Shown piece after piece: positions 7,101 to 22,779 of a stretch of DNA of 64,000 nt. Each line of letters starts with the position of its first letter. The stretch's first letter is position 1. The position numbers and the translations under genes were made by a program. The notes beneath the pieces are model-generated. The model had not been told where the DNA came from, did no database searches, and saw only the letters and a list, made by a program, of their open reading frames with translations. The stretch comes from Candidatus Cloacimonadales bacterium (lineage in GTDB: Bacteria; Cloacimonadota; Cloacimonadia; Cloacimonadales; JAFGVF01), in NCBI GenBank assembly GCA_963678315.1, contig OY782781.1, positions 2,848,001-2,912,000 on the forward strand. The letters run 5' to 3'.

Positions 7101-7474
7101 AACTTAGAAGAAGTAATCTTCATCTTCTGTTTAAGTCGCATATTCCTATTTTGATAATGATCTTGGAATGGTTCATAGAATGACCCATCACTGAACTTTA
7201 AGAAAGTCCGAAAGCCTTGTGTAGAAGTTAAATTGTATGCCCAGTTAGCTGGCAAGAATTCCATGATTGGATTATGTTTACCTTCGAGGCCAATACTACA
7301 TACACATTGTCCTCTATTAACATAGAAAGCCCACATTGGAATACCATTTTTCCCAGCTACTCCAGGGAAGAAAGAAGAGAACAACTTTGAAGAATTATAG
7401 TTATTAATTACAAATTCTCCAGAATTATTCAATTTATATTTTACTTTTTTATTGCTAGTCAAAGCTACCTCCAT
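4160..7474 (-). CDS. Beta-1,3-glucan phosphorylase, GH161-like
   Basis: About 1100 aa, no signal peptide; FSSFFPGVAGKNGIPMWAFYVNRGQ, YSRKHGDLERDYN, KPNWYDALNGLPG, ENESIWLHMEYKY, ARLSGATAEF; context of beta-1,3-glucanases; true start may be TTG 7462 after GGAGG. Confidence 0.8.
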   Translation of the reverse strand: MEVALTSNKKVKYKLNNSGEFVINNYNSSKLFSSFFPGVAGKNGIPMWAFYVNRGQCVCSIGLEGKHNPIMEFLPANWAYNLTSTQGFRTFLKFSDGSFYEPFQDHYQNRNMRLKQKMKITSSKLTLVEKNKTLGLQFSVEYFNVPQDKFAGLIRKLKIKNLNDKAIDLEGLDGLPMIVPYGINNFGLKNLRRLFEAFVEVVNHENKAPFFKSKVLPSDTPDVIKVKKGNFYLAFESEDSTSKLLTPIVDPVKVFGIRGDYNYPENFLAKTYDEIADNQILENRLPCAMGRFKRRIAPHSEYEVTTIIGQAASVEELNLLIPTISKNSYVNKKDAENRRIIRELTQNNFILSDDPIFNNYARTNFLDNALRGGFPFSFKGKEKTTTLHLYSRKHGDLERDYNDFRLKATQYSQGNGNYRDVNQNRRSDLFFNPDVKESNLIQFYNLIQLDGFNPLVIKEIRFTIQDKVKLSSVLSKYLNCDDCSAILDFLKKPFTPGEFMEYLKESTLDLPKTTDDFMGEILECCHKEYGTEHGEGYWTDHWTYNLDLLENYLAVYPENKKSILFEDKVFTFYDNPHTVKPRDEKYVIWNDRPMQLDSVALDTEKENLIGQRESNPNLVRTGYGTKEIYHTNLLNKMLNIVINKLTSLDSEGVGVEMESDKPNWYDALNGLPGIIGSSLNETLEIKRNIQFLIESLDEFYDINASFAIFTEMYDFINSYISLTKHKLNAFDFWDNASSLKEEYRKRTRLGISGEEVYVKKSYLMDFLNAGLDKLNLAIEKAWDKEKGIISSYFVNEIEDYHIIEEGKGNTKTPKTSPKGFLCYKVTKFRHRALPLFLEGPVHYLRSNKNIEKSRQLVKNIRQSGLYDRKLNMYKVNECLDTEPDEIGRARTFSPGWFENESIWLHMEYKYILEMLKSGLYEDFFHDFKKVLIPFLKPEMYGRSILENSSFIVSSANPDPDIHGGGYVARLSGATAEFINILLIMIQGKTPFTLNNQLEFSLSPVLPSWLFTNEEKRVKLYKNGKLEEEFVDKDSFSFIFLGKILVTYHNPQRKNTYGQDKAKITSYKITFLNGSEKTYNDSKLSGDIVEAIRDRQVEKIYVTLK

Positions 7475-7526: not shown

Positions 7527-10352
7527 CTACTTCATTAATACCATTTTCTTAGTACCAATTAGTTCATTATCAACTTTTAGCTGATAGAAATAGATACCAG
7601 ATGATACATTATTAGCTTTCCATACTACATTATAGTTATTTGCATCACGTTGACCATTAACCAAGCTTTCTACTAACTGTCCCTTTGAGTTATATATCTT
7701 TAGAGAAACATTACCTGCTCTCTTTAGGGTATAATTTATAGTTGTTTCTGGATTGAAAGGATTAGGGTAATTATTTCCCATAATCACCGAAGAAGCAAGG
7801 TCTACATCATCAGAAGCATTAGCAACTCCACCATCATAGAAATAGATATTATCAACGTAAAGAGTGTTTGGATCGCCACCGAATATTAGTTGTGCTATAT
7901 GACTTTGACCTGTCATATTTGCAAACTCAGTTAATGGAATATCAAAGCTTACCCATTCACCTGTGGCTAGACTTGTACCATCAAAAGTTAGCTCATGTTC
8001 TGTATCATCATTACCCCATACGCCGTCAGCACCAAAGTCAACTAACTTAATTCTAAACTCAGCTTGGTCAGTTGCATCTGGAGTCCATATATCCATATGG
8101 AAATAGTTCATACCACTAGCATCAATTGTTTCGGAAGTAAATTCAATACCAGCAAAGACGAGATCAGTATAGAGCTTAGTAGCATTCTCAGCAATCATAA
8201 CTTCTTCATAATCAGCATTATCCCATTCAGCTGACCAAGTATCTACATTAATATTTGGATAAACATCACTAAAAATAGAAGTAACATCTTCAGCATCTTC
8301 AGTAGGTGTTGGTGCTGCTTCTGAAGGGATTTGAGAAGGATCTTCTACTGTGAAATGAATATAGTAAGATAGCATTACTGTTTCATCTTCAGAAGTTACT
8401 TCAACTTCAGTTGTTCCAGGAAGTTCACTAGCATCCATTACCATATAGGAAGCATTAGGATTGCTAGTTGTTGCTGTTACCATCGGAACATCTGTAGTAC
8501 CTTCAGGGAGCATTACATCATAATTGAACATATCAGAAGCAAAAGCCTCTATGGAAGTTCCATCTACCATTAAGTCACTCAATGTAGCAATAGACTCTTC
8601 TCCTCCTGATGTTTTCCAGAAATATAGGTTATCAAACCAAATAGTACCATTTCCTACTACTTTAAATTGGAATACACCAGATAAGTCTACAAGGTCGCTA
8701 AAAGCTGTTAAAGGAATATCTACACTTACCCATTCTTCTAACTGAATGTTAAATTCATAAGGTGATTCAGCTCCTGTAGAAATGAGGTAAATATTCAAGT
8801 CAGTTGAGTTAGGAGTCCAGAAATCTACATGTAGATATTCGTATTCACTAAGATCTTGACTTGTAAATTCAGTACCTTGATAGTTCAAATTAGCATACTT
8901 CAAGGTATTGTTACCTGCAATCATTTCATTTACTGTAACGACTGTAGATTGCCCCCAATCAGGGTTGTAATTACTATTAGGTACATTGTTGTATGTATCA
9001 CTATAAATCGAAATCACATTGTCGGTATTATGCATAGGTATTTCAGGGGCAGTTGTTGGTTCTGTGATTGGTTGGTCAATAGTGAAGTTGATAGTATAAG
9101 TCTCATTCATACTTGCATCTGCAGAAGTAACTACAACTGTTGTTGTTCCTGGAAGTTCTGTTGCATCATTAACAACATAACTAGCTCCAGGGTCAGTTGT
9201 TGTGGCAGTAACCATAGGAAGATCTGTTGTTCCTTCAGGTAGAACTACATCATAGCTAAATGTTTGAGAATTAAAGCCTTCAATTGTCACACCATCAACT
9301 TGTAAATCACTTAGAGTAGCAACTTGAGCTCCTCCAACTTCTTTCCAGAAGTAGTAGTTATCAAACCAAACTGTTCCATTTCCTACAACTTTGAACTGGA
9401 TAACATCAGCTAAATTTAAAACAGAACTATAAGCTGAAAGAGGTATATCGATGCTTACCCATGTTTCATGAGTAATGTCTAAAGCATAACTAGCTTCTGC
9501 ACCTGGACTGATTAAATAGAAGTCTAAAGTTGTTGAATTAGGAGTCCAGAAATCTACATGTAAGTAATCATACTCTGATACATTTTGAGAAGTAAACTCT
9601 GTACCTTGATAGTTTAAGTTAGCATATTTTAAGGTATTGTTGCCAGCAATCATCTCATTTACAGTAACCATTGTTGATTGTCCCCAACCTGGATTATAGT
9701 TAGAGTTAGGAACATTATCATAAGAATCACTATAAATTGATATAACGTTCTCTGCATCTTGAGTAGGAAGTGCCGGTGCATCTGTTGGTTCTGCTGGTGG
9801 AGGTAGAACTTCACCTTCAGGTAAAACAATATTATCTAAATAAACAAGATTATCTTCTTCTCTTGCAGCGAAATCAGGTATAAGCACAATTCTATTATAT
9901 GTATTACCTATTTGAGCTGAGAAATCAAAGGTAATCTCTTCCCATTGGTTAACTACAGTATTAGGAACTTGTAGTTCTATAGCACCGCTCATTCCTTCAA
10001 ATTTAAGTCCAATATTGCTTATAACTGGCTTATGTATCATAAGAGATACTGTTGAATTATTAGCATCGAATGTGAAAGTTCCATTATCATCAGTGTAGAA
10101 TAATGCCCAAGCATTCCCATCACTTCTAGCTATAAACTTAGCCACTGTAGGTGTTTGATTAGCTCCACTAGAATTAGGGTTTGCTATAAATTCTATTGCT
10201 GGGTTATCTCCATTCTCTTCAACAGTCCAATCCCATTCTGAGCCAACTCCAGCTGACTCAAAATCTACAGTATGGCTTGCTTGAGCAAACATCAAACTTG
10301 TAAATGTTAATAGGACAAATATAAGTAAATTTCTCAAAGTAATCTGTTTCAT
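7527..10352 (-). CDS. Secreted multi-repeat, apparently non-catalytic carbohydrate-binding protein with C-terminal sorting domain
   Basis: Signal peptide; three 'AP.P...VISIYSD.Y...LHVDFWTP...FDN.YF' modules; two 'ATLSDL.VDG..I..F....Y.V.LP.GT' beta-sandwich modules; NYPNPFNPETTI tail; ATG 10352 after GGAGG. Confidence 0.7.
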   Translation of the reverse strand: MKQITLRNLLIFVLLTFTSLMFAQASHTVDFESAGVGSEWDWTVEENGDNPAIEFIANPNSSGANQTPTVAKFIARSDGNAWALFYTDDNGTFTFDANNSTVSLMIHKPVISNIGLKFEGMSGAIELQVPNTVVNQWEEITFDFSAQIGNTYNRIVLIPDFAAREEDNLVYLDNIVLPEGEVLPPPAEPTDAPALPTQDAENVISIYSDSYDNVPNSNYNPGWGQSTMVTVNEMIAGNNTLKYANLNYQGTEFTSQNVSEYDYLHVDFWTPNSTTLDFYLISPGAEASYALDITHETWVSIDIPLSAYSSVLNLADVIQFKVVGNGTVWFDNYYFWKEVGGAQVATLSDLQVDGVTIEGFNSQTFSYDVVLPEGTTDLPMVTATTTDPGASYVVNDATELPGTTTVVVTSADASMNETYTINFTIDQPITEPTTAPEIPMHNTDNVISIYSDTYNNVPNSNYNPDWGQSTVVTVNEMIAGNNTLKYANLNYQGTEFTSQDLSEYEYLHVDFWTPNSTDLNIYLISTGAESPYEFNIQLEEWVSVDIPLTAFSDLVDLSGVFQFKVVGNGTIWFDNLYFWKTSGGEESIATLSDLMVDGTSIEAFASDMFNYDVMLPEGTTDVPMVTATTSNPNASYMVMDASELPGTTEVEVTSEDETVMLSYYIHFTVEDPSQIPSEAAPTPTEDAEDVTSIFSDVYPNINVDTWSAEWDNADYEEVMIAENATKLYTDLVFAGIEFTSETIDASGMNYFHMDIWTPDATDQAEFRIKLVDFGADGVWGNDDTEHELTFDGTSLATGEWVSFDIPLTEFANMTGQSHIAQLIFGGDPNTLYVDNIYFYDGGVANASDDVDLASSVIMGNNYPNPFNPETTINYTLKRAGNVSLKIYNSKGQLVESLVNGQRDANNYNVVWKANNVSSGIYFYQLKVDNELIGTKKMVLMK

Positions 10353-10353
10353 C

Positions 10354-11463
10354 TTATCCTCCAAAATTAGTATCTTTTATTTTTCTTGTATAATCTATAA
10401 ATGATTGTTTAGGCTTCCTATTCTCATAGAATATACCCCAGTTCTTCTCAACTTCATTGCTTCCAGTAGAGTCTCCTCCACCTTTCCAGGGTTCATCAAA
10501 GACTTCAAATAAGAAGGTTAATCTCTTATTCTTCTTAGTCCATGTAGCAAGTTCTTGTAGAAACTTTCCCTGTGTTTCAACATCTGCTTTCCCCTTAATC
10601 AATGTTCCCTGTTGTCCATCACCTTTTTTGTTTGCATTGTAATTAGATGCCCAGCCAATTTCACCGACTACTAGCTGCTTTTCAGGATGAAGTTCCTGAA
10701 TTTTTACAAGTTCAGAGTCAACCCATTCCATTGAATTTTCAAGACTTTTGCCATTCCATAAAGGGTGAATATGACAAGTTATAAAGTCTATTTCCTGAGC
10801 TACTTTCTTGCTTTCTTCTTTGTTCCAAAAATTGTAATCATCTGCAGTGCTTATTGGTTTATTGACATTTGAGCGAATTACTTTAATGTACTTTATTAAG
10901 CTATCTATCTTCATTTTATGCCAAGACCAATAAACTTGAGTTTCATTACCAACGCTAACAGCAAAAATCTCTTCATTATATTCATTTGTTTGTCTAATTG
11001 CTTCAACAACATTGTTGATATTCTCTAGACGTTTTTCTTCTGAATCTTCTTTACCCAACCACACACCTAACATGACTTTTAGTGGTAATTGTTCTGCTCT
11101 AATTGTTTCTAAAATCATCTTACTCACTGCATCAGCATTATATAATCTAATTATATCAAAATGCTCTGCGATAATGTATAAGTCTTCTATTATTTGATCT
11201 TTTGATGGGTTTTTTACTCCTGGAGCTTGACCCTTTCGATATAAACTCACGCTTACTTGTATCCTTGAAAAATCGCTGTTTTTTAAAAGAGGCAAGTAAG
11301 GGTCAAGGGTAGTTGCACTGTCTATAGAATAATTTTTAGCAATTAATTCAGATTTTAACTTATCTAGATCTAAGCTATTATCTTGCTCTATCACTTGAGC
11401 TTGCTGAGAACATGAAAGAAGAATCAAGCTTAGTATAATGAGAATAAGATTATAAATCTTCAT
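10354..11463 (-). CDS. GH17 beta-1,3-glucanase/glucosidase, lipoprotein
   Basis: LLSC lipobox; IRLY, VMLGVW, VGNE (acid/base), VGEIGW (nucleophile), FDEPWK, EKNWG. Confidence 0.88.
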   Translation of the reverse strand: MKIYNLILIILSLILLSCSQQAQVIEQDNSLDLDKLKSELIAKNYSIDSATTLDPYLPLLKNSDFSRIQVSVSLYRKGQAPGVKNPSKDQIIEDLYIIAEHFDIIRLYNADAVSKMILETIRAEQLPLKVMLGVWLGKEDSEEKRLENINNVVEAIRQTNEYNEEIFAVSVGNETQVYWSWHKMKIDSLIKYIKVIRSNVNKPISTADDYNFWNKEESKKVAQEIDFITCHIHPLWNGKSLENSMEWVDSELVKIQELHPEKQLVVGEIGWASNYNANKKGDGQQGTLIKGKADVETQGKFLQELATWTKKNKRLTFLFEVFDEPWKGGGDSTGSNEVEKNWGIFYENRKPKQSFIDYTRKIKDTNFGG

Positions 11464-11472
11464 AGTTTCACC

Positions 11473-13161
11473 TTAATATTTCATTTGAAGTGTTTCTAAA
11501 GAATTTGCTGGTATTTCAACTTGAATATAGCTATCTTCAATTTGAATACTTGTAGAAATTATTTCATCAGAAGTGTTTAGCATTTGTATAGATATCTCTT
11601 TAGCCGAATTAATAGTTGCTAGAACATGTAAGTCATCATCATCTAAAGTAGAATTTACAACTTTGTTTGTGATAACATAATCTCCCGGTCTAATTGTTCT
11701 GCTAAACTGAGATAAAATATTATAGATAGGAGTATAATATACTTCTTTTGTTTGCCTATCAATCATGATGGGAGCCCCACAGAAGTTTCCAACATGATTA
11801 GGTCCACCCTTACTGTCTAACACTACATTCCAGTCTATCCAGCCAGAAACCCAGTTATCAAGACTAAGGATTATATTTCTAGCATATCGATGAACAGGAG
11901 TATAGATAGGATGATCTTCAACCTTTACTCCTTGCCATGTCACACTGTAAGCCCAGTCTGTAGCATTAGGATTCCACCAAAAGTCATCATTGTTAAACCA
12001 ATCTTTTTCCTTAAATCGAACAGTGTCAGTTACTCCACCTGGTGCATCTTTACCTAAATCATCAATACAACCTTCAGTATGCATTATATCAAAATCAGGG
12101 TATTTGTCATGAACTCTTCTTAATACATCTTCATATACTTTGTTAGTAGACTCATACCAGTGTATTGCAGCGCCATACACATACTCAGAACTTAGATTAT
12201 CATTATAAATAGGCTCAACCCATTCCTCAAGTCCATCTCTGTTTTGGTCATAAATTAGTAACTTTACATCTTTAAATTTATTCTCTTGAAGCTTTGGTCC
12301 TAAATATCTTTTGATAAAGCTATTTTGACTTTCAGGAGTAAATTTCATAGATTCCCATTGACCATTGTTGCCATGTGGCTCATTTACAGGAGTAATACCC
12401 CAAATATCAATACCAACCATTTGATAAGCTTGTAAGTACTTAATCAGATAATCAGCATAAACTTCTTCATATTCAGCTTTTAAAGAACCACCTGTACCTT
12501 GCCAGTTATTCTCTGGAGTTCCAGGAATGTACCAAGTCTCTATATCCTTCATCCAAGCTGGGGCTGTCCAAGCTGAGGCTACAATATTTAGAGTCTTGTC
12601 TTTCTGCTGACTTTTAACTTGATAAGCCTCCATAATCATAGGAAGTAAATCATAAGAAGTTTTAACAAGATCTGGGTATTTTTGTTTATCAAAACCTTTT
12701 AAATCATTCATTATCGAAAAGTTAGAAAGGTTTATATCATCAGCAAGGTCGTTATATGAATATTTCCCTTGGACTGTAAAGTCACATGAACCAATATGGG
12801 TTCTGGCTAAACTGAAGTTTGCACCCTTCTCCCCATAGATGTTTTCCATGACTTCCTTTCTATCATTTTCTGAGAGATGAGCCAGTACAAAAGCAGAAGA
12901 TTCTGTGAAAGAAGAACCGATTCCTACAATTGCTTGTTTTTTCATATCAGGATAGACTTCTATGACAAGACCATTTGCTTTCCCTTTATTAACTTCTAGA
13001 CTAGGCATTTGTTCTTGTATAGCTCCAGCTGAAGAAGTTAAAATTACTTTAGCAATATTGGCTTGTCTAGATGAATCAACTTCGTTCATAGAACAGCCAG
13101 TAATTATTAATGTTAAGATAATTATCCTAAAGACACTAGGAATTCTACTTATATTGTTCAT
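11473..13161 (-). CDS. GH30 glycoside hydrolase (probable beta-1,6 debranching enzyme), lipoprotein
   Basis: GIGSSFTES, RTHIGSCDF, SAWTAPAWMK, VNEP, HTEGC, WIDWN..D..GGPNH..N.C.AP. Confidence 0.88.
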   Translation of the reverse strand: MNNISRIPSVFRIIILTLIITGCSMNEVDSSRQANIAKVILTSSAGAIQEQMPSLEVNKGKANGLVIEVYPDMKKQAIVGIGSSFTESSAFVLAHLSENDRKEVMENIYGEKGANFSLARTHIGSCDFTVQGKYSYNDLADDINLSNFSIMNDLKGFDKQKYPDLVKTSYDLLPMIMEAYQVKSQQKDKTLNIVASAWTAPAWMKDIETWYIPGTPENNWQGTGGSLKAEYEEVYADYLIKYLQAYQMVGIDIWGITPVNEPHGNNGQWESMKFTPESQNSFIKRYLGPKLQENKFKDVKLLIYDQNRDGLEEWVEPIYNDNLSSEYVYGAAIHWYESTNKVYEDVLRRVHDKYPDFDIMHTEGCIDDLGKDAPGGVTDTVRFKEKDWFNNDDFWWNPNATDWAYSVTWQGVKVEDHPIYTPVHRYARNIILSLDNWVSGWIDWNVVLDSKGGPNHVGNFCGAPIMIDRQTKEVYYTPIYNILSQFSRTIRPGDYVITNKVVNSTLDDDDLHVLATINSAKEISIQMLNTSDEIISTSIQIEDSYIQVEIPANSLETLQMKY

Positions 13162-13173
13162 AGCTCATCTCAC

Positions 13174-14622
13174 TCAATTTACAAGTTTACTTTTATGTTC
13201 TTTTCTTTTCTTAAGCTCATCACGAATTTCATAAGACATCTTCTCAGTTAGGCTATACTTAGACATCACAATTATAGCTACTACAGCACCAATAATTGGG
13301 ACTATACTATAGGCTAGTCTAACACCTGTTATTGCACCAACAACTTGTTGACTTGCATCAGGATTGAATCCAACAAATGCCATTATAGCACCACTAAGTA
13401 GTCCTGCAAAAGCCTGACCAAACTTAACCATCCACCAATATATAGCTCCAAAAACGCCTTCTCTTCTTAAACCAGAATTAAGTTCATCTAAGTCACAAAC
13501 ATCAGCAGTCATAGACATCATCAAAGTAAATAGTCCACCAATACCAAATGAAAAGAATGGAAGCGGGATGAATATTAACCATGGCTTTCCAGGAACAAAA
13601 CAGAACCAGAAAAGGATGTAACCAATAAGAGAGATTGACTGAGTGATGATAAACGCTTTCTTTTTACCAAACTTCTTGGAAATAGGTGTTATAAGTGGTA
13701 TTACTAAGAATGTAGTAAAAATAGCACCAATAGAACCATTTAGTGTTGGCCACAAACCAGCATCTCCCGCATTTCCATTGAACATATAATGAACAATGAT
13801 GAAGAATGAGAATGCTGCAATTGTGTTGAAAGAATTAAAGACAAGGAATGTAGAAATACATAGCTTTCTAAAAGGTTTTAGTTTTAGAGCTTCTCCGAAC
13901 TCATGAAAAAGAGTCTTTAAATTATTTGATATATTCTGTCTGTTAAGTTCTTTATATTCTGTATTATTAAGAGTTGATTTACTTTTAACAAATATAGCAG
14001 GAACTGCTGCCAAAAGCATACAAATAAGTCCTACCCAAACAGCGAGGTATCTACTTCCTGCTGCTGCATCAGCAAACCATTCTTGTTTGTAGATTACCAC
14101 CCAGAACCATGGGGCTATAACCCATGCCCATTGACCAATCCATTGGGCAACAGCCATTATCTTAGTTCTTTCATGAAAATCACTACTCATTTCATAGCCC
14201 ATTGCAACATAAGGGACACTAAAAATGGTCAATCCTAAGTAGAAAATTAGTGAGAAAAACATGAAATAATAGAAGTTATAGTTTAGTCCATTAGAGGCAT
14301 ACAATTGCCACATGAAGACAAAGCTCAGACCTGTAATAAGGGCACCTAGTAAAACATATTGACGTCTTCTACCCCATTTAGATCTAGTATTATCAGAGAT
14401 AAAGCCCATCATTGGGTCTGTTATAGCATCAAATAATCTAGGGAAGAAGAAGATAAGTCCCCATAAGAAAGGAGAAAAACCTAGTCCTTGAACTAAGACA
14501 ATCATAAAGACACCTAAGGCAGCTGGAAACATTTGATTAGCAAGCATTCCTATACCAAAGGCAACCTTTTGCGACATTGGTACAGAGTCCCTTCTAACTA
14601 CATTGCTATTTATATTATTCAT
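13174..14622 (-). CDS. MFS sugar transporter (glycoside-pentoside-hexuronide/MelB type)
   Basis: About 12 TM segments; FDAITDPMMGFISDNTRSKWGRRR, ADVCDLDEL.SG.RREG motifs. Confidence 0.9.
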   Translation of the reverse strand: MNNINSNVVRRDSVPMSQKVAFGIGMLANQMFPAALGVFMIVLVQGLGFSPFLWGLIFFFPRLFDAITDPMMGFISDNTRSKWGRRRQYVLLGALITGLSFVFMWQLYASNGLNYNFYYFMFFSLIFYLGLTIFSVPYVAMGYEMSSDFHERTKIMAVAQWIGQWAWVIAPWFWVVIYKQEWFADAAAGSRYLAVWVGLICMLLAAVPAIFVKSKSTLNNTEYKELNRQNISNNLKTLFHEFGEALKLKPFRKLCISTFLVFNSFNTIAAFSFFIIVHYMFNGNAGDAGLWPTLNGSIGAIFTTFLVIPLITPISKKFGKKKAFIITQSISLIGYILFWFCFVPGKPWLIFIPLPFFSFGIGGLFTLMMSMTADVCDLDELNSGLRREGVFGAIYWWMVKFGQAFAGLLSGAIMAFVGFNPDASQQVVGAITGVRLAYSIVPIIGAVVAIIVMSKYSLTEKMSYEIRDELKKRKEHKSKLVN

Positions 14623-14641: not shown

Positions 14642-17362
14642 TTAGTTGCTAAGGTAAATATCATCAAGATATAACTTACCGAACAATAGGTTATTTGAAA
14701 TATCATTAGGATTCCAAATTCCAAGGTATCTAAAGTCAGTTAAATCTACTCCAGTGAAATCACTTAATGGAACTTCATAAATGTACCAATCTCCTTGCAT
14801 AGAAGGAGTATAGTTTGCTATATCAACTTCAAGTTGACCACCAGAATTATCTTCAAGCTTTATGCCTAGATGTACTAAAGCAGAAAGTTCTGTTTTATTG
14901 ATAGCAAAGTTTAGTCTTGTATAAGAAGTAATATCTTGACCTGGGGTTCCAAAATTAAAGGCTATTCCTCCCCAACCATTACCAGAATCTTGGAAATCGA
15001 TAGATAAACAATGGTTCCCTTCTAGAGCTGTTATTTCTGTGTTTTCAAGATTTACTTCCACAACATTACCACTCCAATCAGCACTGTTAATAACCTGACT
15101 ATAGGCTATTACACTTCCATTATGAGTTTCTGTGTAGATTCCACCTTCTTCACCATCTGGTATTTCAATTTCATCCATAGATAAATAGATATTGTCGAAA
15201 AAGAGCTTGCCAAAGAGTAGATTGTTTGAAGCATCTTTTGGACTCCATATACCTAAGTATTTCAAGTCACTAAAATCAACCCCTACAAAATTATTTATAG
15301 GTATTTTATATATTGACCAATCTCCTTGGAGTAAAGGACTATAGTTTGAGATATCAAGCTCTGTTTGATTTCCAGCATTATCTTCAAACTTCATTCCTAA
15401 GTGAACTAAATTATTCATTTGAGTACTATTTACAGCGAATGAGAAAGTCAAGAATTCACTTACATCCTGGTTATTATTTGAGAAATCAAAGGCAATACCA
15501 CCCCACCCAACTCCTAGATCTTGGAAATCTACAGAAAGTGAATAAGTACCATCATAAGGAGTAACCTCTGTACTTTCAACATCTGGCTCTCCAATGTTAC
15601 CACTCCAATCTGCGCTATTGATAATTTGTGAATAAGATAAAGTAGCATCTGTGTATGTTTCAGAATATATCGCTATGTTATTAGATGGCTCTTGATTTTC
15701 TTCCATCATTGCACTAGCACTTTTAAGTAAGCCATTTGAATCTGTATAAGTAACTGTTAAATATTGACCTGGAACAAAGACTACTTGTTCTGAATTAGCG
15801 TCTGAGGAAACAAATTCTATTGTTTTACTGCCAGTTCCAGAGTTATCTAAGTCTAGAGAAATTTCAAAGCTTTGTTGAGAATTATCAACAGTAACATTGA
15901 CAGAGCTATCAATCAATCCTTCATCCATAACAGTAATTACTGCATTAGTTGAATCTTCAGTGTATGTTGCAGAATCAAGCATAATACTTGAGCTGTTTAG
16001 ACCACCACCACTATAGTATATGTCATCTATTGCAAAGTGACATTGAACTCCATTCTCTTCTCGAATGATGAAGACATAGTCTGAATTAGATAAATCAACT
16101 CCTACTGCAAGTTCTTGTAGAGGAATTGATGCCTTTCCCCATTCCCCATCTCTTACTAAGCCATAAGCAGTTTGATTTGCTGGGAATTCAAGGTAGTTTT
16201 CATTGCCATTTATATCATTCATACCTATTTGAAAAGTAACTTCAGCAGGTATCTTAATCATGAAGTTTAGGTAACCAGCTTGGAAATTGCTTAGATTAAG
16301 AGCTTCGTTCATCTTGATTCCACAGCCAAACCAACCAATGCCAGTAGTTAGCCATGTCATGCCTGCATCTCCTTCATAAGGATCGATTGAACCAGGAGAT
16401 AAAGTATTTTCCCAAACATATATCTCTGCATCAGCACCAACAACAATATTAGCATCTACTGGGCTCGTTTCTGTAAAGATACCAAGTGTTTCTACATCTC
16501 CGCTAGTATCTTCAATTTGATATACTCGTACCCAATCAATTAGCATTTCTTGAGGCCATTCAGTTGTTGAATCAGGTGCTCCACCAAGATTACCACCTAC
16601 TGCATTGTTGAGGATTATGAAAAAGTCGTTCATGAATTCACTCATAGTCTCAGGATCTATAATTTTAGTGAAATAAGTTACTCCATCAATACGTCCAACT
16701 ATCTTATCTGCATCCCATTCAACTTCAAAGATATGGTAATCTTCAGCAAGAGAGTATTCAAATTCTTTAGTTTGACTATAATAGACTCTTTCTCCATCCT
16801 CTTCCCAATGAACAGTGCACATTGTAGTATTCTCGTTATGATAGAAGGAGGACATTTCCATAACATCTATCTCTCCACATTGAGGCCAGCCAATTGTATC
16901 ATAATTTGCCCCTAACATCCAGAAAGCAGGCCACATACCCATTGTGCGAGGAGGTTTTATCTTGGCTTGAATCATACCATATTTGAAAGAATACTTGTTT
17001 TTTGTATTCACTCTTCCTGATGTGATTGAGCCATCCCTTTTACCGGGAGCAGAATAGTTTTCTGAATCGAATCGGGTGGTTATTACAAGGTTACCATTTT
17101 CTACTTTAACATTATCTTGAGAGTTGGTATATAATTGCCATTCATCATTACCCCAGCCATCTTGACCATACCCTTCTTCAATATTCCATTTAGTAGCATC
17201 TAATTGTGTAGATTCTTGATTAAATTCATCCGACCATACTAAAGTATAATTCTGTGATGGTAAAGTATCTTCAATTTGTTGAGGTTCTGTAGAATTGTCA
17301 CAACTAAATAAAATAGGAATCAATAATAAATATAACAATTTATAAATATTTCTGCTAGCCAT
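14642..17362 (-). CDS. GH16 laminarinase-type endo-beta-1,3-glucanase lipoprotein with C-terminal binding modules
   Basis: LFSC lipobox; LVWSDEF, WPAFWMLG..WPQCGEIDVME; last two ~177-aa modules duplicated (YSQ.INSADWSGN at DNA offset 531); likely start MASRN after GGAGG. Confidence 0.9.
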   Translation of the reverse strand: MASRNIYKLLYLLLIPILFSCDNSTEPQQIEDTLPSQNYTLVWSDEFNQESTQLDATKWNIEEGYGQDGWGNDEWQLYTNSQDNVKVENGNLVITTRFDSENYSAPGKRDGSITSGRVNTKNKYSFKYGMIQAKIKPPRTMGMWPAFWMLGANYDTIGWPQCGEIDVMEMSSFYHNENTTMCTVHWEEDGERVYYSQTKEFEYSLAEDYHIFEVEWDADKIVGRIDGVTYFTKIIDPETMSEFMNDFFIILNNAVGGNLGGAPDSTTEWPQEMLIDWVRVYQIEDTSGDVETLGIFTETSPVDANIVVGADAEIYVWENTLSPGSIDPYEGDAGMTWLTTGIGWFGCGIKMNEALNLSNFQAGYLNFMIKIPAEVTFQIGMNDINGNENYLEFPANQTAYGLVRDGEWGKASIPLQELAVGVDLSNSDYVFIIREENGVQCHFAIDDIYYSGGGLNSSSIMLDSATYTEDSTNAVITVMDEGLIDSSVNVTVDNSQQSFEISLDLDNSGTGSKTIEFVSSDANSEQVVFVPGQYLTVTYTDSNGLLKSASAMMEENQEPSNNIAIYSETYTDATLSYSQIINSADWSGNIGEPDVESTEVTPYDGTYSLSVDFQDLGVGWGGIAFDFSNNNQDVSEFLTFSFAVNSTQMNNLVHLGMKFEDNAGNQTELDISNYSPLLQGDWSIYKIPINNFVGVDFSDLKYLGIWSPKDASNNLLFGKLFFDNIYLSMDEIEIPDGEEGGIYTETHNGSVIAYSQVINSADWSGNVVEVNLENTEITALEGNHCLSIDFQDSGNGWGGIAFNFGTPGQDITSYTRLNFAINKTELSALVHLGIKLEDNSGGQLEVDIANYTPSMQGDWYIYEVPLSDFTGVDLTDFRYLGIWNPNDISNNLLFGKLYLDDIYLSN

Positions 17363-17424
17363 TATAAATCCTCCACTAGTCCTTAGTTTTTTTATCTTAA
17401 CATAATATAATAATAACATGTTTA

Positions 17425-17436
17425 TGCTATATAGCA
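17425..17436. promoter_or_regulatory. Putative operator palindrome TGCTATATAGCA
   Basis: Perfect 12-bp palindrome just downstream of the minus-strand TTGACA (17465-17460) promoter of the GH16 operon. Confidence 0.65.
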
Positions 17437-17592
17437 AATAAAGATAAATAAAATTTTGCTGTCAAGAATTTATTGATATACTTTCTATTATAGAGTTAAT
17501 TTTGCTTGACCTATTATAGCATTTTAAAGATTAGTCACTAAGTGCTATATTTTCAAAATGCAAAGAAACTAGATATTTCAGGAGAAATATAT

Positions 17593-18648
17593 ATGACTAA
17601 CACTCCAAAGTATATTGCTGTAAAAGAGCAAATAAGAGAAAGTATTAAAGACGGTAGCCTAAAAGGTAAAATACCAGGAGAGCGACAGTTAGCAAAACAC
17701 TATAATGTGTCTTATATGACTGTAAGAAGAGCTATCTCAGAGCTTGTTGAAAGCGGAATACTACATAAGTTTGCAACTAAAGGCACTTTCGTTAGCCATA
17801 GTAAAAGCACACCTAAAGTAACTAAAAACATTGGCTTCTTCCTAGACAAAGAGATTAAGCAGGGTATTTCTAGTCCCTATTACTCTTTAGTATTTAATGC
17901 TCTTGAACAAGAAGCACTTAAGATTGGTTATCACCTAATTCTTTTTTCTGAATTCGATGATCTTAACCCGGTAAATAGCATGAAAAAAATCGATGGTGTA
18001 ATCCTAAGTTGCTTCCCTAGGTTAGAACCTAAGATACAAGAACTTAAAAAGCTACTTCCAATTGTTCTAATAGACAATATTTCTTCAGATAAATCTATCC
18101 CTTCAGTAACTATTGACAACTTCAATGGTATTTATGAAGCAGTAGAATATTTGTGTGAACTGAATCACAAAAGAATTGCTTTTATTACTGGACTATTAGA
18201 TTCTAACATATACAATGAGCGTATCTTAGGCTACGAACATTCTTTAGTTGCTAATGGTATCGAACCAGATGAATCATTAACTTACAGAGGAGATTATTCT
18301 TATCAATCTGGAGAAGATGCTGCTATGTATTTCCTATCCTTAAAAAACCCTCCTACTGCTATAATGTGTGCTAACGATACAATGGCAATAGGAGCTATAA
18401 AAGTCGTTAGAGAAAAAGGCTTGGACGTTCCTCAAGACGTTAGTATAATAGGCTTTGATGACATTGAAGTCTCTTCTAAAATGTTCCCAGGACTTACAAC
18501 TTTAGCAGCCCCAATAGAAAAGATAGCTAAGGAAGCAGTTACTCTCTTAGTTAGTGTTATAGAGGGTGAAAATAAAGATTACAAGCATATAATATTACCT
18601 ACCGAATTAGTTAAAAGAGGAACTTGTACATTGATACAAAACAACTAG
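17593..18648 (+). CDS. Transcriptional regulator, GntR HTH fused to a LacI-type sugar-binding domain (AraR-like)
   Basis: KIPGERQLAKHYNVSYMTVRRAISEL..GTFV; C-terminal PTAIMCAND..VPQDVSIIGFDD; ATG 17593 after AGGAG. Confidence 0.9.
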   Translation: MTNTPKYIAVKEQIRESIKDGSLKGKIPGERQLAKHYNVSYMTVRRAISELVESGILHKFATKGTFVSHSKSTPKVTKNIGFFLDKEIKQGISSPYYSLVFNALEQEALKIGYHLILFSEFDDLNPVNSMKKIDGVILSCFPRLEPKIQELKKLLPIVLIDNISSDKSIPSVTIDNFNGIYEAVEYLCELNHKRIAFITGLLDSNIYNERILGYEHSLVANGIEPDESLTYRGDYSYQSGEDAAMYFLSLKNPPTAIMCANDTMAIGAIKVVREKGLDVPQDVSIIGFDDIEVSSKMFPGLTTLAAPIEKIAKEAVTLLVSVIEGENKDYKHIILPTELVKRGTCTLIQNN

Positions 18649-18948
18649 TTCTTCATCAGCAATTTAAGATAAATCCTTTTCACCACTACACTTTGATAGA
18701 CTGCTATCAAATAAAAGTCAAAAATACTATAGCAATAATAACTATTTAACTATAGAGTTGAAACTTACCCCTCTTAATCACATCTTCTTAATGCTATCAC
18801 ATAATATATTTATTCAATCTTGCACACTAGCGTCCCATATAGCTCCTTTTTTCATATAGAATTACTAATCAACACTTTAAAGGAGAAAATTTTATGATTA
18901 TTGATATCCGGATAATACTAGATATCAACATAACAGATAAAATACTTC

Positions 18949-19033: not shown

Positions 19034-22000
19034 ATGTTAAAACTTGTTAATTTTAGAACGAAAAGTACATTACTTTTAATCATTTTTACATTACTATTTT
19101 CATTTCTATTCTCTAGCCCAACAAGCAAGGCAAATCTTGTAAACACTTACAATGATTCGGGGGGATGGAAACTTCAAGTTGATGGCGAAGACTATTTTGT
19201 GAAAGGTATAGTTTGGGGTTATACACCAATCGGAGAAAACTATTCCTACAATCTTTGGGCAAATAACGATGAGCAGATAATGAAAGTATTAGATTATGAA
19301 TGTTCATTAATGCAAAAGGCTGGGATTAATACTATAAGGTCTTTTGGAATGATACCACCTAAATGGGTTACCTATATCTATGATAAGTATGGTATCATGA
19401 CTATTATCAATCATTTAATGGGAAGATATGGCTATAATGTTGCTGGTGTTTGGATACCAAAAACTAATTATGCTGATAAGCTCACCAGAGAAACATTGAC
19501 AAAAGATTTTGTTGATTTAGTTCAACAATATAAAGAAGTTCCTGGTGTTCTTATGTTCGCTTTAGGTAATGAAAGCAATTACGGTTTAGAATGGTCTAGC
19601 TTCGAGATAGAAAATCTTCCTGTTGGGGAACAGCATAAAGAGAAAGCTAAATCTCTCTATAGTCTTTTCAATGACGTAATTGTAGAAGCTAAGAAAGTAA
19701 ACTCTAATCACCCATATATTATAGTTAATGGAGATATTCAGTATCTTGATTTGATAGTTGATTTATGTCCTGATTTAGATATTCTTGGGGTCAATGCTTA
19801 TCGTGGAATTAGCTTTACTGATATGTGGCAAAGAGTTGATGCAGAAGCAAATCTACCTATACTTTTAACAGAATTTGGTTCTGATGCTTTCAATGCACTT
19901 ACTTTTGCAGAAGACCAAGATGGTCAAGCAGAGATTGTTAAAGGTAATTGGGTTGAAATATACAACAAGTCTTATGATAAAGATGAAGAAGGGAATGCTC
20001 TTGGTGGCTGTCTTTTTGAATGGCGTGACGAGTGGTGGAAATACCTACAGGTTGAAAACCTTGATGTTCAAGACAATCATGCATCATGGAGTAATGGTGG
20101 TTACTATTTTGACTATAGACAAGGTGTCAACAACATGAATGAAGAGTGGTTTGGTATTTGTGGATTGGCTGGTCCAAATGATGATGGCGTGTTTGAAGCA
20201 ATCCCTAGAACTGCTTATGATGTTATGACAGCTATGTGGAAAATAGATCCATATAAGACTTCAAAAACAGATATGAATCACTATTTTGACAAGCTAGATA
20301 TGAAAGTTTACTCTCTCGGTGGACAAGTTACTAAATTGCTTTCAGAAAGTAAAAAGAATAAGTATTTTTATCTAAAAGGTGGAAGTTTAGAAGGAGACAT
20401 GGTATTCAACGGTCTCTCAGAAGACATCGAAAATGATGGTAAGGATGGTCTTAACTTCTCCAATGGTGAAATGCTTTACTTAGATTTCGGATTCCAACCA
20501 ACCAGCCGAATAAATGGTGAGTTTACTCTTAATATTCTTGGTAATGTAGTCGATAAACCTATGGATGAATATTATGGCAAACGTGGTTTAGCTTATAATA
20601 CTGTTGTTTCTGAATTAGACGACAATAATTTACCAGTCTTATCTGAGCAAGAAGTTACAGACAATGAAAGAGTGGAGATATATAGTTTTAAGGCTCACTA
20701 TCATAATGACAATTATGATTTAACAGCTTTCTATCATGTTCCTAGATATCATTGGGGATATGATGGGGACTTCTTTGGATTAATGTGGGAAGCTACAGAT
20801 ATGGAAGGAATGGATATTTGGAATGCTAAAGCTCCTTATGGAATGGAATTCGAAGGAAAAAAAGGACTTTCTGGATTAACTGTAGTTGCTGGACCTGAAG
20901 TTTACTGGGGAGCTAACCCAAAAGCAATCGTAAAATATAACTTTGGTAGCGATAGATTTAAATACACTTTCGTTCATTCTGAAGACTTTACCCAGGCTGA
21001 AGCTTCTTCAACTGCTACAGAAGCTACTGACAAAGCAACCAGACAAACAGCCTTATCATTAGAAACTAATGTCATCCCAAGAACAAAGATTGAATTGGGT
21101 TATCTCTTCTCAGGTAGTGAAAAGATAGATGATGAATTTTACTATTATGATGATGAAATGCTTTATCAAGATAAGATTGACATAGAGGATACTCAAGCAT
21201 TTAAAGCTAAGATTACTTTCACTGCACCATGGGCAATAGTCTTAGATGCCTCATTTAACTATGCAGGTTTAGTAGCTAATTCAGGTTCCCCTTTACGTGA
21301 ATTCGACACTGAAATGCCATATTCTTCCTTAGGTAATAAAATGGTATATGAAGCAGGTTTAATAGTTCCTATCGGCAACTTCTTCCTTCTTCCAAGAGCT
21401 ATGTATAGAGAGAATTTAATCGAAGCTAACCCAACTATTGAGGCTACATCAAATGCCTTAGATATATTCCCAGGTCTTACCCCAAGAAACCTTGAGTCTG
21501 ATCCATTTGCTGTTCTTGACAATAGAAAAGCACAGTCAGCAGAATTTTTCTTCTCATACGACCCAACTCCTGCAAGTTCTTTTTATGCTTGGGACTACGA
21601 GAAACGTGAAGATGCAAGCTTAGCTTTTAGTTTAGGTGGTAATTACACTAAGTATGAAACAGAAACAGATGCAAACCTCTTCTACTATCAAGAAGGTGGC
21701 TTTAATGCTCCATTTGGTGCTGGACTTCCTGCCGATGAAGTATGGTTAGGAAAGCTTAAAATGGTTATAAATCCTACAGCTAATGTTAGGTTAATCACTA
21801 ATATTAGCGCTGGAAAACAACAATCTTCTGGAACTCCGGAAGGAGAAGCTGCAGAATTTAGTGAAGTATCATCAAAACTAATCTTATCAAAGAAACACTA
21901 TCTAGAAGCTTATGTTAAAAAAGATGCCTGGGGACCACTTGATTGGTACAGACAGTTTAACATCACCTTCCCTTATCAATATATGTTAGACTATTCCTAC

Positions 22001-22156
22001 TTGATAGATAATCTACTTAGTGATACTTCCTCAAGTAGAATCGGATTTAGAGCTATCATGCGTGAACTCAATTCTGATTCTCCAACAAACGAAGGATTAG
22101 ATGTTCCAAGTGATTATGAGTTCCAAGCAGGAATTTACTACAAAATGGCATTTTAA
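19034..22156 (+). CDS. Clan GH-A TIM-barrel glycosidase (GH2/GH158-like) fused to a probable outer-membrane beta-barrel
   Basis: Signal peptide; ALGNESNYG and LLTEFGSD catalytic Glu motifs, FEWRDEWWK; C-terminal ~600 aa with alternating aromatic/hydrophobic strands ending QAGIYYKMAF. Confidence 0.7.
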   Translation: MLKLVNFRTKSTLLLIIFTLLFSFLFSSPTSKANLVNTYNDSGGWKLQVDGEDYFVKGIVWGYTPIGENYSYNLWANNDEQIMKVLDYECSLMQKAGINTIRSFGMIPPKWVTYIYDKYGIMTIINHLMGRYGYNVAGVWIPKTNYADKLTRETLTKDFVDLVQQYKEVPGVLMFALGNESNYGLEWSSFEIENLPVGEQHKEKAKSLYSLFNDVIVEAKKVNSNHPYIIVNGDIQYLDLIVDLCPDLDILGVNAYRGISFTDMWQRVDAEANLPILLTEFGSDAFNALTFAEDQDGQAEIVKGNWVEIYNKSYDKDEEGNALGGCLFEWRDEWWKYLQVENLDVQDNHASWSNGGYYFDYRQGVNNMNEEWFGICGLAGPNDDGVFEAIPRTAYDVMTAMWKIDPYKTSKTDMNHYFDKLDMKVYSLGGQVTKLLSESKKNKYFYLKGGSLEGDMVFNGLSEDIENDGKDGLNFSNGEMLYLDFGFQPTSRINGEFTLNILGNVVDKPMDEYYGKRGLAYNTVVSELDDNNLPVLSEQEVTDNERVEIYSFKAHYHNDNYDLTAFYHVPRYHWGYDGDFFGLMWEATDMEGMDIWNAKAPYGMEFEGKKGLSGLTVVAGPEVYWGANPKAIVKYNFGSDRFKYTFVHSEDFTQAEASSTATEATDKATRQTALSLETNVIPRTKIELGYLFSGSEKIDDEFYYYDDEMLYQDKIDIEDTQAFKAKITFTAPWAIVLDASFNYAGLVANSGSPLREFDTEMPYSSLGNKMVYEAGLIVPIGNFFLLPRAMYRENLIEANPTIEATSNALDIFPGLTPRNLESDPFAVLDNRKAQSAEFFFSYDPTPASSFYAWDYEKREDASLAFSLGGNYTKYETETDANLFYYQEGGFNAPFGAGLPADEVWLGKLKMVINPTANVRLITNISAGKQQSSGTPEGEAAEFSEVSSKLILSKKHYLEAYVKKDAWGPLDWYRQFNITFPYQYMLDYSYLIDNLLSDTSSSRIGFRAIMRELNSDSPTNEGLDVPSDYEFQAGIYYKMAF

Positions 22157-22167
22157 GGACTACTATT

Positions 22168-22779
22168 ATGAAAAAAATACTTATAATATTTATAACTTTA
22201 TTAATTATCGTTGCTTGTGAAGTTAAAGAAGGAAATCAGATTACTGGTCTTGATTTACCTCTTGATAATGAACTGGTTCTTTATGGAGAAAATGAAGGTA
22301 TTTATCCTAGTACTTCTATCTTAGATAACGAGAATAACCCTTATGCTAATGCAAATATCTCAGCTGAACAAGCTTGGGATTTCTTGGAAGACTGCCCTTC
22401 TCCTAAAGCAAAGTTCTACCTTTGGGGAACAATGCTAGCTAAAATATCAACTGGTGAATATCAGTATTTTACAGCTCAAGCTCTCCATGAGCTATATACA
22501 GTTAGTGGTAGCCAAAACGCTAAAGAACAAGCTAAAAAAGCTTACCGTTCTGTACTAGACAACTTCTTCACATCTACTACTTGGTATGAAGCCTGGTGGA
22601 TTCAAGAAGAAACAGTCTATGCTGTAGAATTAAATAATCTAGTTGGACAAAGCATGTATGACCCAACAGAATTAAATCTACTACCACTTTATAATGATCC
22701 TGTCTTAGCACTTCAAGATTTATCTTTATGGGGCTATGTTTATGATCCAGAAACAAAAACCATTTCAAGAATAAATTAA
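22168..22779 (+). CDS. Lipoprotein of unknown function, co-transcribed with the GH-barrel gene
   Basis: MKKILII...IVAC lipobox; 11-bp gap from the upstream gene; helical aromatic-rich segment. Confidence 0.7.
   Translation: MKKILIIFITLLIIVACEVKEGNQITGLDLPLDNELVLYGENEGIYPSTSILDNENNPYANANISAEQAWDFLEDCPSPKAKFYLWGTMLAKISTGEYQYFTAQALHELYTVSGSQNAKEQAKKAYRSVLDNFFTSTTWYEAWWIQEETVYAVELNNLVGQSMYDPTELNLLPLYNDPVLALQDLSLWGYVYDPETKTISRIN

Follow-up and report, generated by a model that had tools for sequence, protein, structure and literature searches.

A glycosidase-barrel fusion and its lipoprotein neighbour in a predicted Cloacimonadota laminarin locus, a candidate outer-membrane device for beta-1,3-glucan uptake

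Closest described systems and the gene pair

Laminarin is an abundant algal sugar polymer, and to our knowledge its uptake is mechanistically understood almost solely for the SusCD systems of Bacteroidota. In SusC/SusD, and also in BtuB-BtuG and XusA-XusB, the gene for a large outer-membrane barrel is followed by a lipoprotein gene, and the same arrangement is found in a glycan locus of a Candidatus Cloacimonadales bacterium (assembly GCA_963678315.1, contig OY782781.1, positions 2,848,001 to 2,912,000 of the forward strand; this whole stretch of 64,000 nucleotides is called the window below). Here the first gene encodes a protein (P0001) in which a glucanase-like domain is joined to a predicted beta-barrel, and the second encodes a small lipoprotein (P0002). 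Both open reading frames (ORFs) lie exactly where an earlier note, made from the sequence alone, had put them (Table 1). With a probability of roughly 0.6, we take the pair to be a two-part outer-membrane device for the uptake of beta-1,3-glucan (laminarin) fragments; we infer the transport, the substrate, the coupling of entry to cleavage and the side of the membrane on which the enzyme would act.

In its working the module would come closest to SusCD pairs and sugar-specific porins, and it belongs to neither group. TonB-dependent transporter barrels (8p97_A, 8bmx_C, 5t3r_D, 8aa4_A) are among its structural matches, and the partner lipoproteins of some lineages show stretches with sub-threshold similarity to carbohydrate-binding modules (CBM). 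In contrast to SusCD, the module has no Plug, TonB_dep_Rec or SusD_RagB domain and no TonB box, its barrel is predicted to have about 26 strands instead of 22, the mature lipoprotein has 186 residues instead of about 500, the enzyme is covalently fused, and nothing indicates energisation. The sugar porins LamB, ScrY, ChiP, OprB and CymA are, like the proposed device, TonB-independent channels adjoining uptake and catabolic genes for one glycan, and chitoporin, maltoporin, sucrose porin, OprB and CymA were all found among the structural matches of the barrel. They have 14-18 strands, however, and neither a lipoprotein partner nor a fused enzyme.

LptD/LptE and MtrB/MtrA, very large barrels that enclose a partner protein, are similar to the pair only in the size of the barrel and the presence of a partner; the alignment with MtrB runs through the entire domain (402 residues), and Foldseek listed LptD as well. 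LptE is a separately encoded lipoprotein of about 190 residues, and LptD carries an additional N-terminal domain on the periplasmic side. Neither Pfam nor NCBIfam gave an LptD (OstA) or LptE signature in P0001 or P0002, and the context is sugar catabolism, not lipopolysaccharide (LPS) or electron transfer. Type Va autotransporters have the same order of N-terminal functional domain, alpha-helical linker and C-terminal barrel. Their barrel has 12 strands and their passenger is beta-helical, whereas the present barrel is about twice that size and also occurs alone with a lipoprotein; AIDA-I is a weak match to it (Z 8.8, 164 residues aligned).

The enzyme part shares the clan GH-A fold and the positions of the catalytic Glu residues with the endo-beta-1,3-glucanases of glycoside hydrolase (GH) family 158 (BuGH158, 6PAL; GH158(Pro), 9ORO/9P25) and with LaGH157 of family GH157 (9FZ9), all of which are likewise found in beta-1,3-glucan loci. 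Its sequence similarity to GH158 is marginal (E 2e-4 over 124 residues), and in place of the C-terminal Ig-like domain described for GH158 in PMC13195107 it carries a helical linker and the barrel of about 600 residues. No description of a GH-barrel fusion was found among the papers listed for GH158, outer-membrane barrels, laminarin uptake or Woeseia. The accessible part of PMC13195107 makes no mention of outer membrane, porin, beta-barrel or periplasm. In the accessible part of a Woeseiaceae survey (PMC12175321), GH158 is named among the families of laminarin loci with no barrel fusion, the word 'porin' is absent, and the five mentions of 'outer membrane', as far as they are shown, deal with siderophore receptors, cytochromes and Mla lipid asymmetry; its Fig. 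S15 or Table S11 may show these genes.

The predicted barrel, the enzyme domain and the lipoprotein

The C-terminal part of P0001, of about 600 residues, is predicted to be a transmembrane-type beta-barrel. Residues 410-1040 were folded alone on the basis of 62 aligned sequences, distant and stand-alone forms among them, and the model had a predicted local distance difference test score (pLDDT) of 91.6 and a predicted template-modelling score (pTM) of 0.84. It consists of two helices and then 28 strands by DSSP, mostly of 8-17 residues, in a single up-and-down meander. Dyad hydrophobicity is clear in many of the strands (e.g. S3, S10, S13, S16, S18, S23, S25, S27, S28) and not in S14 and S15, which perhaps form an external hairpin; the strand count is therefore given as about 26 (24-28). 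The earlier note had read a strand-like region of about 600 residues ending in YYKMAF from the translation and had asked for its structure to be predicted. The region and its ending are present and a barrel-type fold is predicted, although the barrel is predicted to start at residue 445, behind the helices at 411-419 and 423-442. The YYKMAF end matches the full beta-signal consensus only in part; a terminal F or Y is shared by 112 of the 115 full-length homologues.

Among the matches listed by Foldseek for this domain in the PDB there were outer-membrane barrels only, namely TonB-dependent transporters, MtrB, chitoporin, MOMP, AlgE, LptD and ushers, with BtuB3 (8p97_A, E 3.4e-10, TMq 0.36) as the best. 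Likewise, a VIA search of 48,161 chains, which does not depend on Foldseek, gave only membrane barrels among the top 50 listed. Whole-domain matches were to 24-strand ushers (FimD 3ohn_B, Z 14.2, 356 residues aligned), to the 26-strand MtrB (6r2q_B, Z 11.7, 402 aligned over model residues 36-631) and to 22-strand TonB-dependent transporters; 18-strand porins such as AlgE (4xnk_A, Z 15.6, root-mean-square deviation (rmsd) 6.1, 294 aligned) aligned to model residues ~35-500 only. Further matches were PelB and a polysaccharide secretin (9h80_M, Z 10.1; 4y25_A, Z 11.4). The soluble beta-sandwich domains that the earlier note had named as the case speaking against a pore were not borne out by these searches.

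No known family was recognised in this part of the protein. At E up to 1, Pfam recognised nothing in the lipoprotein and nothing in residues 430-1040 of P0001, and NCBIfam gave noise only for P0001 and P0002 (E 0.16 and 0.21). Outer-membrane protein families of Pfam were without a match in 24 barrel-bearing proteins, Plug and TonB_dep_Rec were found neither in P0001 (E up to 1) nor in 24 family members (E 0.01), and the Autotransporter domain (PF03797) matched neither P0001 nor the 24 barrel-bearing proteins.

The two sides of the predicted barrel differ. On the side of the termini 11 of 13 turns are short (2-6 residues) and weakly conserved (0.33-0.59), and on the opposite side the loops reach 39 residues with a conservation of 0.63-0.97; the 34-residue loop 568-601 stands at 0.85 and VYWGANP at 0.97. 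Being so conserved, the long loops are probably functional (in binding, constriction or docking of the lipoprotein) and not merely exposed and variable. Judged by strand parity and the short turns, strand 1 begins on the side where the C-terminus lies, and by the usual topology of outer-membrane proteins this is the periplasmic side. The hydrolase could then equally well lie in the periplasm, provided that the linker helix (423-442) does not traverse the lumen in the way it does in autotransporters.

The N-terminal domain is, on the evidence of sequence and model, a GH158-like retaining glycosidase of clan GH-A, closest to GH158 and not a proven member of that family. P0001 opens with the hydrophobic leader MLKLVNFRTKSTLLLIIFTLLFSFLFSSPTSKA, and the full-length model has a helix at residues 2-26. 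Pfam gave a weak Glyco_hydro_2_C match alone (E 2.6e-4, residues 86-318), and phmmer against the PDB found GH158(Pro) 9oro_A over residues 161-284. In that alignment E180 and E280, of the motifs GNE (178-180) and TEFG (279-282), pair with chain positions 135 and 221. Glu143 is the acid/base and Glu229 the nucleophile of GH158(Pro) according to PMC13195107; the 86-residue Glu spacing is equal for the positions paired with P0001 and in GH158(Pro), which gives a constant offset of 8. Both Glu residues are invariant in 45 aligned homologues, and GNE[SN]NY is found in 115 and xEFG[SA]D in 113 of 115 full-length homologues. The glucanase domain thus looks catalytically intact, as the earlier note had read from the two Glu motifs, and hydrolysis of beta-1,3-glucan is predicted.

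The full-length AlphaFold2 model (alignment of 45 homologues) had a pLDDT of 80.2 and a pTM of 0.64, so the relative placement of its domains is unreliable. Its top Foldseek matches were GH158 and then GH157 laminarinases. With VIA, the glucanase domain matched 9oro_A (Z 27.5, rmsd 3.0, 282 aligned, 24% identity), the chain 9g4n_C (Z 26.6) and GH2 glucuronidases (Z 26-27, identity 13-19%). The best alignments to 9oro_A span chain residues 27-322 only, and the Ig-like domain of the solved GH158 enzymes is absent from the model of P0001, which has two short strands (376-391) and then the helices and the barrel. Two insertions in this domain, at residues 181-200 (19574-19633) and 335-371 (20036-20146), are almost invariant across phyla, have a model pLDDT below 50 and no counterpart in the phmmer alignment with 9oro_A. 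They may be loops that gate the active site, or they may be where the barrel or the lipoprotein makes contact.

The lipoprotein begins with the lipoprotein signal MKKILIIFITLLIIVAC, and its gene follows the glucanase-barrel gene after a gap of 11 nucleotides. The lipobox Cys is invariant in 34 of 34 aligned homologues from several phyla. In total 159 homologues are detectable, and tblastn found one directly downstream of the large gene in 47 of 80 related loci, so the tightly linked partner seen in the earlier note holds up widely. The other 33 loci are cut by a contig end or belong to a distant clade (about 37% identity). In 19 loci of this clade the next ORF was inspected: a lipobox pattern occurs in six, all from Flavobacterium, Chryseobacterium or Bacteroidales, three more lipoproteins are visible by eye, and the others are high-GC loci in which crude ORF picking is unreliable. 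Two lipoproteins of the distant clade carry Big_2 domains, one lipoprotein shows sub-threshold CBM_11/CBM30 matches, and those of Flavobacterium and Chryseobacterium begin ...GCQTDDSD or ...GCQRDINE. Pfam showed no SusD_RagB or SusD-like domain in P0002 (E up to 1), the lipoprotein alignment, run as a profile against the PDB, found no match with an E-value under 0.36, and in the ESM Atlas the best score was 0.82 with a recognition of 2014, under the mark of 2300; TPR leads at or below 0.80 there were sub-threshold and are not used as evidence.

A complex of barrel and lipoprotein, which the earlier note had suggested predicting, was modelled by docking. Residues 421-1040 and the mature lipoprotein gave ipSAE values of 0.47, 0.47 and 0.52, against 0.00 for the best of three controls, with a contact agreement of at least 91% and a partner pLDDT of at least 85. 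Of 157 solved complexes 116 reached the docking mark, as did 2 of 215 mismatched pairs; scores of at most 0.60 were seen for only 18 of the 157. This lends weak support to docking of the lipoprotein on the barrel.

The barrel also occurs without the enzyme. A HMMER search of the full library with residues 433-1040 gave 289 cluster representatives, among them stand-alone barrels of about 570-625 residues (P0254, P0265, P0288) that have their own signal peptide straight before the first strand and lack the helical linker. P0265 has 27 members, 26 of them of 597 residues, on contigs of up to 1.7 Mb, and P0288 includes a member from Spirochaetota. Two further short forms were rejected as stand-alone barrels, being fragments of long proteins. 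A metagenome scan with P0265 found four loci, of which L085 alone had DNA downstream of the barrel. There the stand-alone barrel is followed by a 560-residue lipoprotein, the ends of which match P0002 (45% identity over 100 residues, E 5e-23), and then by an SBP_bac_5 ABC importer. A lipoprotein homologue that follows an enzyme-free barrel indicates that the lipoprotein goes with the barrel and not with the enzyme; it looks like barrel and lipoprotein are the core and the enzyme an add-on. No stand-alone barrel was found in 401 sampled genomes of Gammaproteobacteria, where both matches to P0265 were fused forms. Variation is seen at the N-terminus as well, P0300 having an additional CBM_4_9 (E 3.6e-8) and P0270 a second GH-like domain.

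Longer partner lipoproteins, of 385-560 residues compared with 203, were seen in L024, L031, L032 and L085. The L085 protein has a middle part inserted between its P0002-like ends, and this insert resembles CBM_11 at a level that does not reach the Pfam cut-off (E 1.9e-4), which hints at a glycan-binding role.

We also compared 15 related loci from at least eight phyla, in which the scan took in some 6.5 kb before and 7 kb after the gene and 110 neighbouring ORFs (Cloacimonadota, Gemmatimonadota, Woeseiaceae and other Gammaproteobacteria, Desulfuromonadales, Krumholzibacteriia, Bacteroidales, Myxococcota, Flavobacterium and Chryseobacterium). Thirteen of the 15 contain a GH16 gene, and the other neighbours include GH30, GH17, GH3 and GH1 genes, importers of the MFS, ABC and SSF types and LacI/GntR regulators. 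SusC, SusD, Plug and TonB_dep_Rec were not found among the 110 ORFs (E <= 1e-5).

Proposed uptake route and competing explanations

In the proposed device a plug-less, TonB-independent barrel of about 26 strands and its own small lipoprotein would form the core, with a GH158-like retaining endo-beta-1,3-glucanase fused N-terminally through the helical linker. Laminarin would be cut by the GH16 lipoprotein, and fragments would cross the outer membrane via the barrel, the conserved long loops and the lipoprotein serving as binding and gating parts. At one end of the pore the tethered glucanase would cleave the incoming chain and so couple entry to cleavage; whether this is the periplasmic mouth or the one at the surface is at about even odds. 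The products would be trimmed by the GH30 and GH17 proteins, the MFS_2 transporter would bring oligosaccharides into the cell, and the GH161 phosphorylase would make glucose-1-phosphate. The single-chain pore with hydrolase and lipoprotein partner that the earlier note had envisaged is compatible with the modelled barrel fold, the apparently intact GH-A domain and the conserved partner. Its further idea, that the module replaces SusCD, agrees with the 15 loci described above and less well with the Woeseiaceae data given below.

Several observations weigh against this uptake reading. The barrel is a modelled one and its strand count of 24-28 was taken from DSSP strings, and its TM-scores to known barrels are low (0.25-0.37 in Foldseek), which makes the barrel class new and means that properties of known barrels are not transferable to it. 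A pore of about 26 strands that stood open would let the outer membrane leak and harm the cell; some gate is therefore needed, and gating by the loops or the lipoprotein is assumed. The docking support is weak, and no interface was reported. In the distant clade tblastn detected no lipoprotein homologue, and the link between stand-alone barrel and lipoprotein comes from one informative locus (n=1), two other stand-alone loci ending at a contig edge. According to the Woeseiaceae survey, a single SusC gene is present in 7 of 11 metagenome-assembled genomes with laminarin-associated GH sets (PMC12175321); with SusC in those polysaccharide utilisation loci (PULs), it is no strict rule that a TonB-dependent transporter is missing from the wider surroundings of the module.

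A bolder form of the uptake reading is conceivable, and we hold it to be doubtful. Catalysis by a GH158 enzyme is described as processive and tunnel-forming in the abstract of PMC13195107, which suggests a hydrolysis ratchet without TonB if the enzyme is periplasmic. In such a TonB-independent, hydrolysis-driven importer the lipoprotein and outer loops would capture the chain, the barrel would thread it, and the enzyme at the periplasmic mouth would cleave processively, so that cleavage stops back-sliding. If this were true, glycans would have a third route through the outer membrane, in addition to diffusion porins and to SusCD driven by TonB, and this route would take no energy from the inner membrane, and it would explain 'selfish'-like laminarin uptake in phyla without SusCD.

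It is also imaginable, although we think it unlikely, that the barrel mainly anchors and perhaps, like an autotransporter, translocates an outward-facing glucanase, which together with the lipoprotein would make a single-chain 'utilisome' with a pore that may or may not carry products, a picture close to the 'self-feeding' importer of the earlier note. The order of catalytic domain, helix 423-442 and barrel is that of type Va autotransporters, and additions such as those in P0300 and P0270 are commoner in enzymes that encounter their polymer extracellularly. The GH158 enzyme of a beta-1,3-glucan locus in Bacteroides uniformis is reportedly a cell-surface enzyme, and the GCQTDDSD and GCQRDINE starts of some partner lipoproteins resemble the surface-export signal of Bacteroidota. 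About 26 strands are, however, far beyond the need of an anchor, for which type Va proteins have 12, no Autotransporter domain was recognised by Pfam, the long loops are more conserved than the strands, and strand parity puts the N-terminus of strand 1 on the periplasmic side. The barrel moreover exists enzyme-free beside sugar importers, so that anchoring cannot be its primary role.

The matches to AlgE, PelB and the polysaccharide secretin could alternatively point outwards, to a barrel that secretes a self-made beta-glucan or exopolysaccharide while the fused hydrolase edits it in the periplasm, in parallel to PgaA/PgaB, BcsC/BcsZ, PelB/PelA and AlgE/AlgL; export systems often pair a barrel with a periplasmic domain and a glycoside hydrolase. 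We rate this as quite improbable, because neither among the 110 neighbouring ORFs nor in the window locus was a glycosyltransferase, a synthase or a Wzx/Wzy-type gene found, and the neighbours are catabolic (GH16, GH30, GH17, GH3, GH1, GH161, importers, sugar-responsive repressors). The glycosyltransferase in L086, one of the loci with a stand-alone barrel, belongs to an upstream cluster of lipid A/LPS type, and a glucokinase gene lies between this cluster and the barrel. Least probable of all is that P0001 is a secreted glucanase of many domains whose C-terminal region consists of soluble beta-sandwiches or lectin-like units. Large glucanases often have C-terminal beta-rich CBM or Ig domains, and the barrel has no Pfam family, but the model is one continuous meander of 28 strands (pTM 0.84), no sandwich is among the 50 VIA rows or the Foldseek rows listed, 112 of 115 homologues end in an aromatic residue, and turns and loops alternate as in outer-membrane proteins.

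Taken as an uptake device, the barrel-lipoprotein module is probably an undescribed route for beta-1,3-glucan, judged from sequence and models. If it is the entry step at the outer membrane, it would supply the missing transporter in many 'PUL-like' loci, serve as a marker gene for beta-glucan uptake beyond Bacteroidota and offer a compact enzyme and channel system for TonB-free polymer passage across the outer membrane. Neither barrel nor lipoprotein has a Pfam family, and each would define a new protein family.

The window locus, its genome and related loci

Cloacimonadota, Gemmatimonadota, Desulfuromonadales and Gammaproteobacteria have the pair with 50-76% identity, and more distant forms are seen in Bacteroidota and Myxococcota. 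Among species-representative genomes at least 592 stretches carry the module, and over 2100 proteins in databases represent it, the homologues being named 'hypothetical protein' or 'beta-galactosidase' only. Carriers include Woeseiaceae, which are abundant in sediment, anaerobic Cloacimonadota and, as cultured organisms, Flavobacterium franklandianum LB3P56 and Lentisalinibacter orientalis YNA5901.

From its sequence, the locus in the window is a full predicted laminarin pathway save for the passage of the outer membrane (Table 1). The GH161 phosphorylase is predicted to be the cytoplasmic end of the pathway; Pfam had no match in its ORF. The earlier note had called P0001 the only outer-membrane channel candidate in the locus, and Pfam indeed showed no other among the neighbouring ORFs of the window. 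In the organism's own genome (one contig of 2.99 Mb, 97.9% complete) there was no match to SusD, there are two Plug-domain genes only, both far from the locus, and the glucanase-barrel gene is single-copy.

Table 1. Positions of the gene pair, its parts and the neighbouring features in the window
Feature	Position	Strand	Remarks
Glucanase-barrel gene	19034..22156	+	ORF of 1040 aa (P0001)
Signal peptide	19034..19135	+	Part upstream of 19136; residues 1 to ~34, ...SSPTSKA, then N; read from the translation
GH158-like clan GH-A (beta/alpha)8 glucanase domain (predicted)	19136..20263	+	Residues ~35-410
Codon of E180, predicted acid/base	19571-19573	+	
Codon of E280, predicted nucleophile	19871-19873	+	
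Helical linker	20264..20365	+	Helices 411-419 and 423-442, DSSP of both models
Predicted outer-membrane beta-barrel domain	20366..22156 (incl. stop codon)	+	Residues 445-1040, about 26 strands, terminal Phe
Partner lipoprotein gene (P0002)	22168..22779	+	203 aa, lipobox ...IVAC, Cys17
GntR-HTH/LacI-type sugar-binding regulator	17542..18648	+	Pfam; upstream of the pair
GH16 laminarinase-type lipoprotein, CBM-like C-terminal part	14642..17437	-	Divergent operon; Pfam E 1.1e-16, lipobox ...LFSC
MFS_2 (GPH-type) inner-membrane sugar transporter	13174..14622	-	Pfam E 1.4e-63
GH30 lipoprotein	11473..13161	-	Pfam E 3.4e-63, lipobox ...ITGC
GH17-like lipoprotein	10354..11463	-	Weak Pfam; GH17 glucanosyltransferase 4wtp_A, E 2.6e-13; lipobox ...LLSC
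945-aa protein with sorting domain of the type IX secretion system (T9SS)	7527..10364	-	Weak cadherin-like match; within the glucan operon
GH161 beta-1,3-glucan phosphorylase	4160..7474	-	1104 aa, no signal peptide; 9qqk_A, E 1.9e-216, residues 19-1101
Palindrome	18694-18709	+	TGATAG-ACTG-CTATCA
C25 peptidase	23395-25845	-	T9SS C-terminal sorting domain
Beta-lactamase-fold protein	2475-3950	-	T9SS C-terminal sorting domain
Group II intron	26731-28613	-	

A regulator of the window type is in the same position in L001, L004, L008 and L048, and nearby in L032. The perfect palindrome between the regulator gene and the glucanase-barrel gene is a candidate operator. The sequence TGATAGACTGCTATCA has a single exact occurrence in the window and five matches at two mismatches, where chance gives a mean of 5.5; a shared operator is not claimed. 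Promoter and terminator scans gave nothing usefully above shuffles.

ORFs of 1109-1198 residues that lack a Pfam match are present in L011, L022, L044, L048, L058, L074 and L080 and are, by their size, candidates for the GH161 family. A second protein of about 590-610 residues with weak Glyco_hydro_2_C similarity was seen in three loci of Woeseiaceae and other Gammaproteobacteria (L011:13776-15605, L022:13864-15645, L032:18881-20635), directly downstream of the lipoprotein gene in L011 and L022 and several genes further on in L032. It may be a soluble GH158-like paralogue that cooperates with the fused enzyme.

T9SS sorting domains were found in three proteins of the window, one of them in the glucan operon. 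The organism thus appears to have a T9SS, which fits the FCB-group/Cloacimonadota affinity of the nearest homologues. The group II intron was recognised by the Rfam models Intron_gpII (domain V/VI region, 26731-26802) and group-II-D1D4-4 (28477-28613). Its reverse transcriptase/maturase is split over two overlapping ORFs, 27380-28159 (RVT_1) and 26836-27423 (end of RVT_1 and GIIM), so the intron-encoded protein looks frameshifted.

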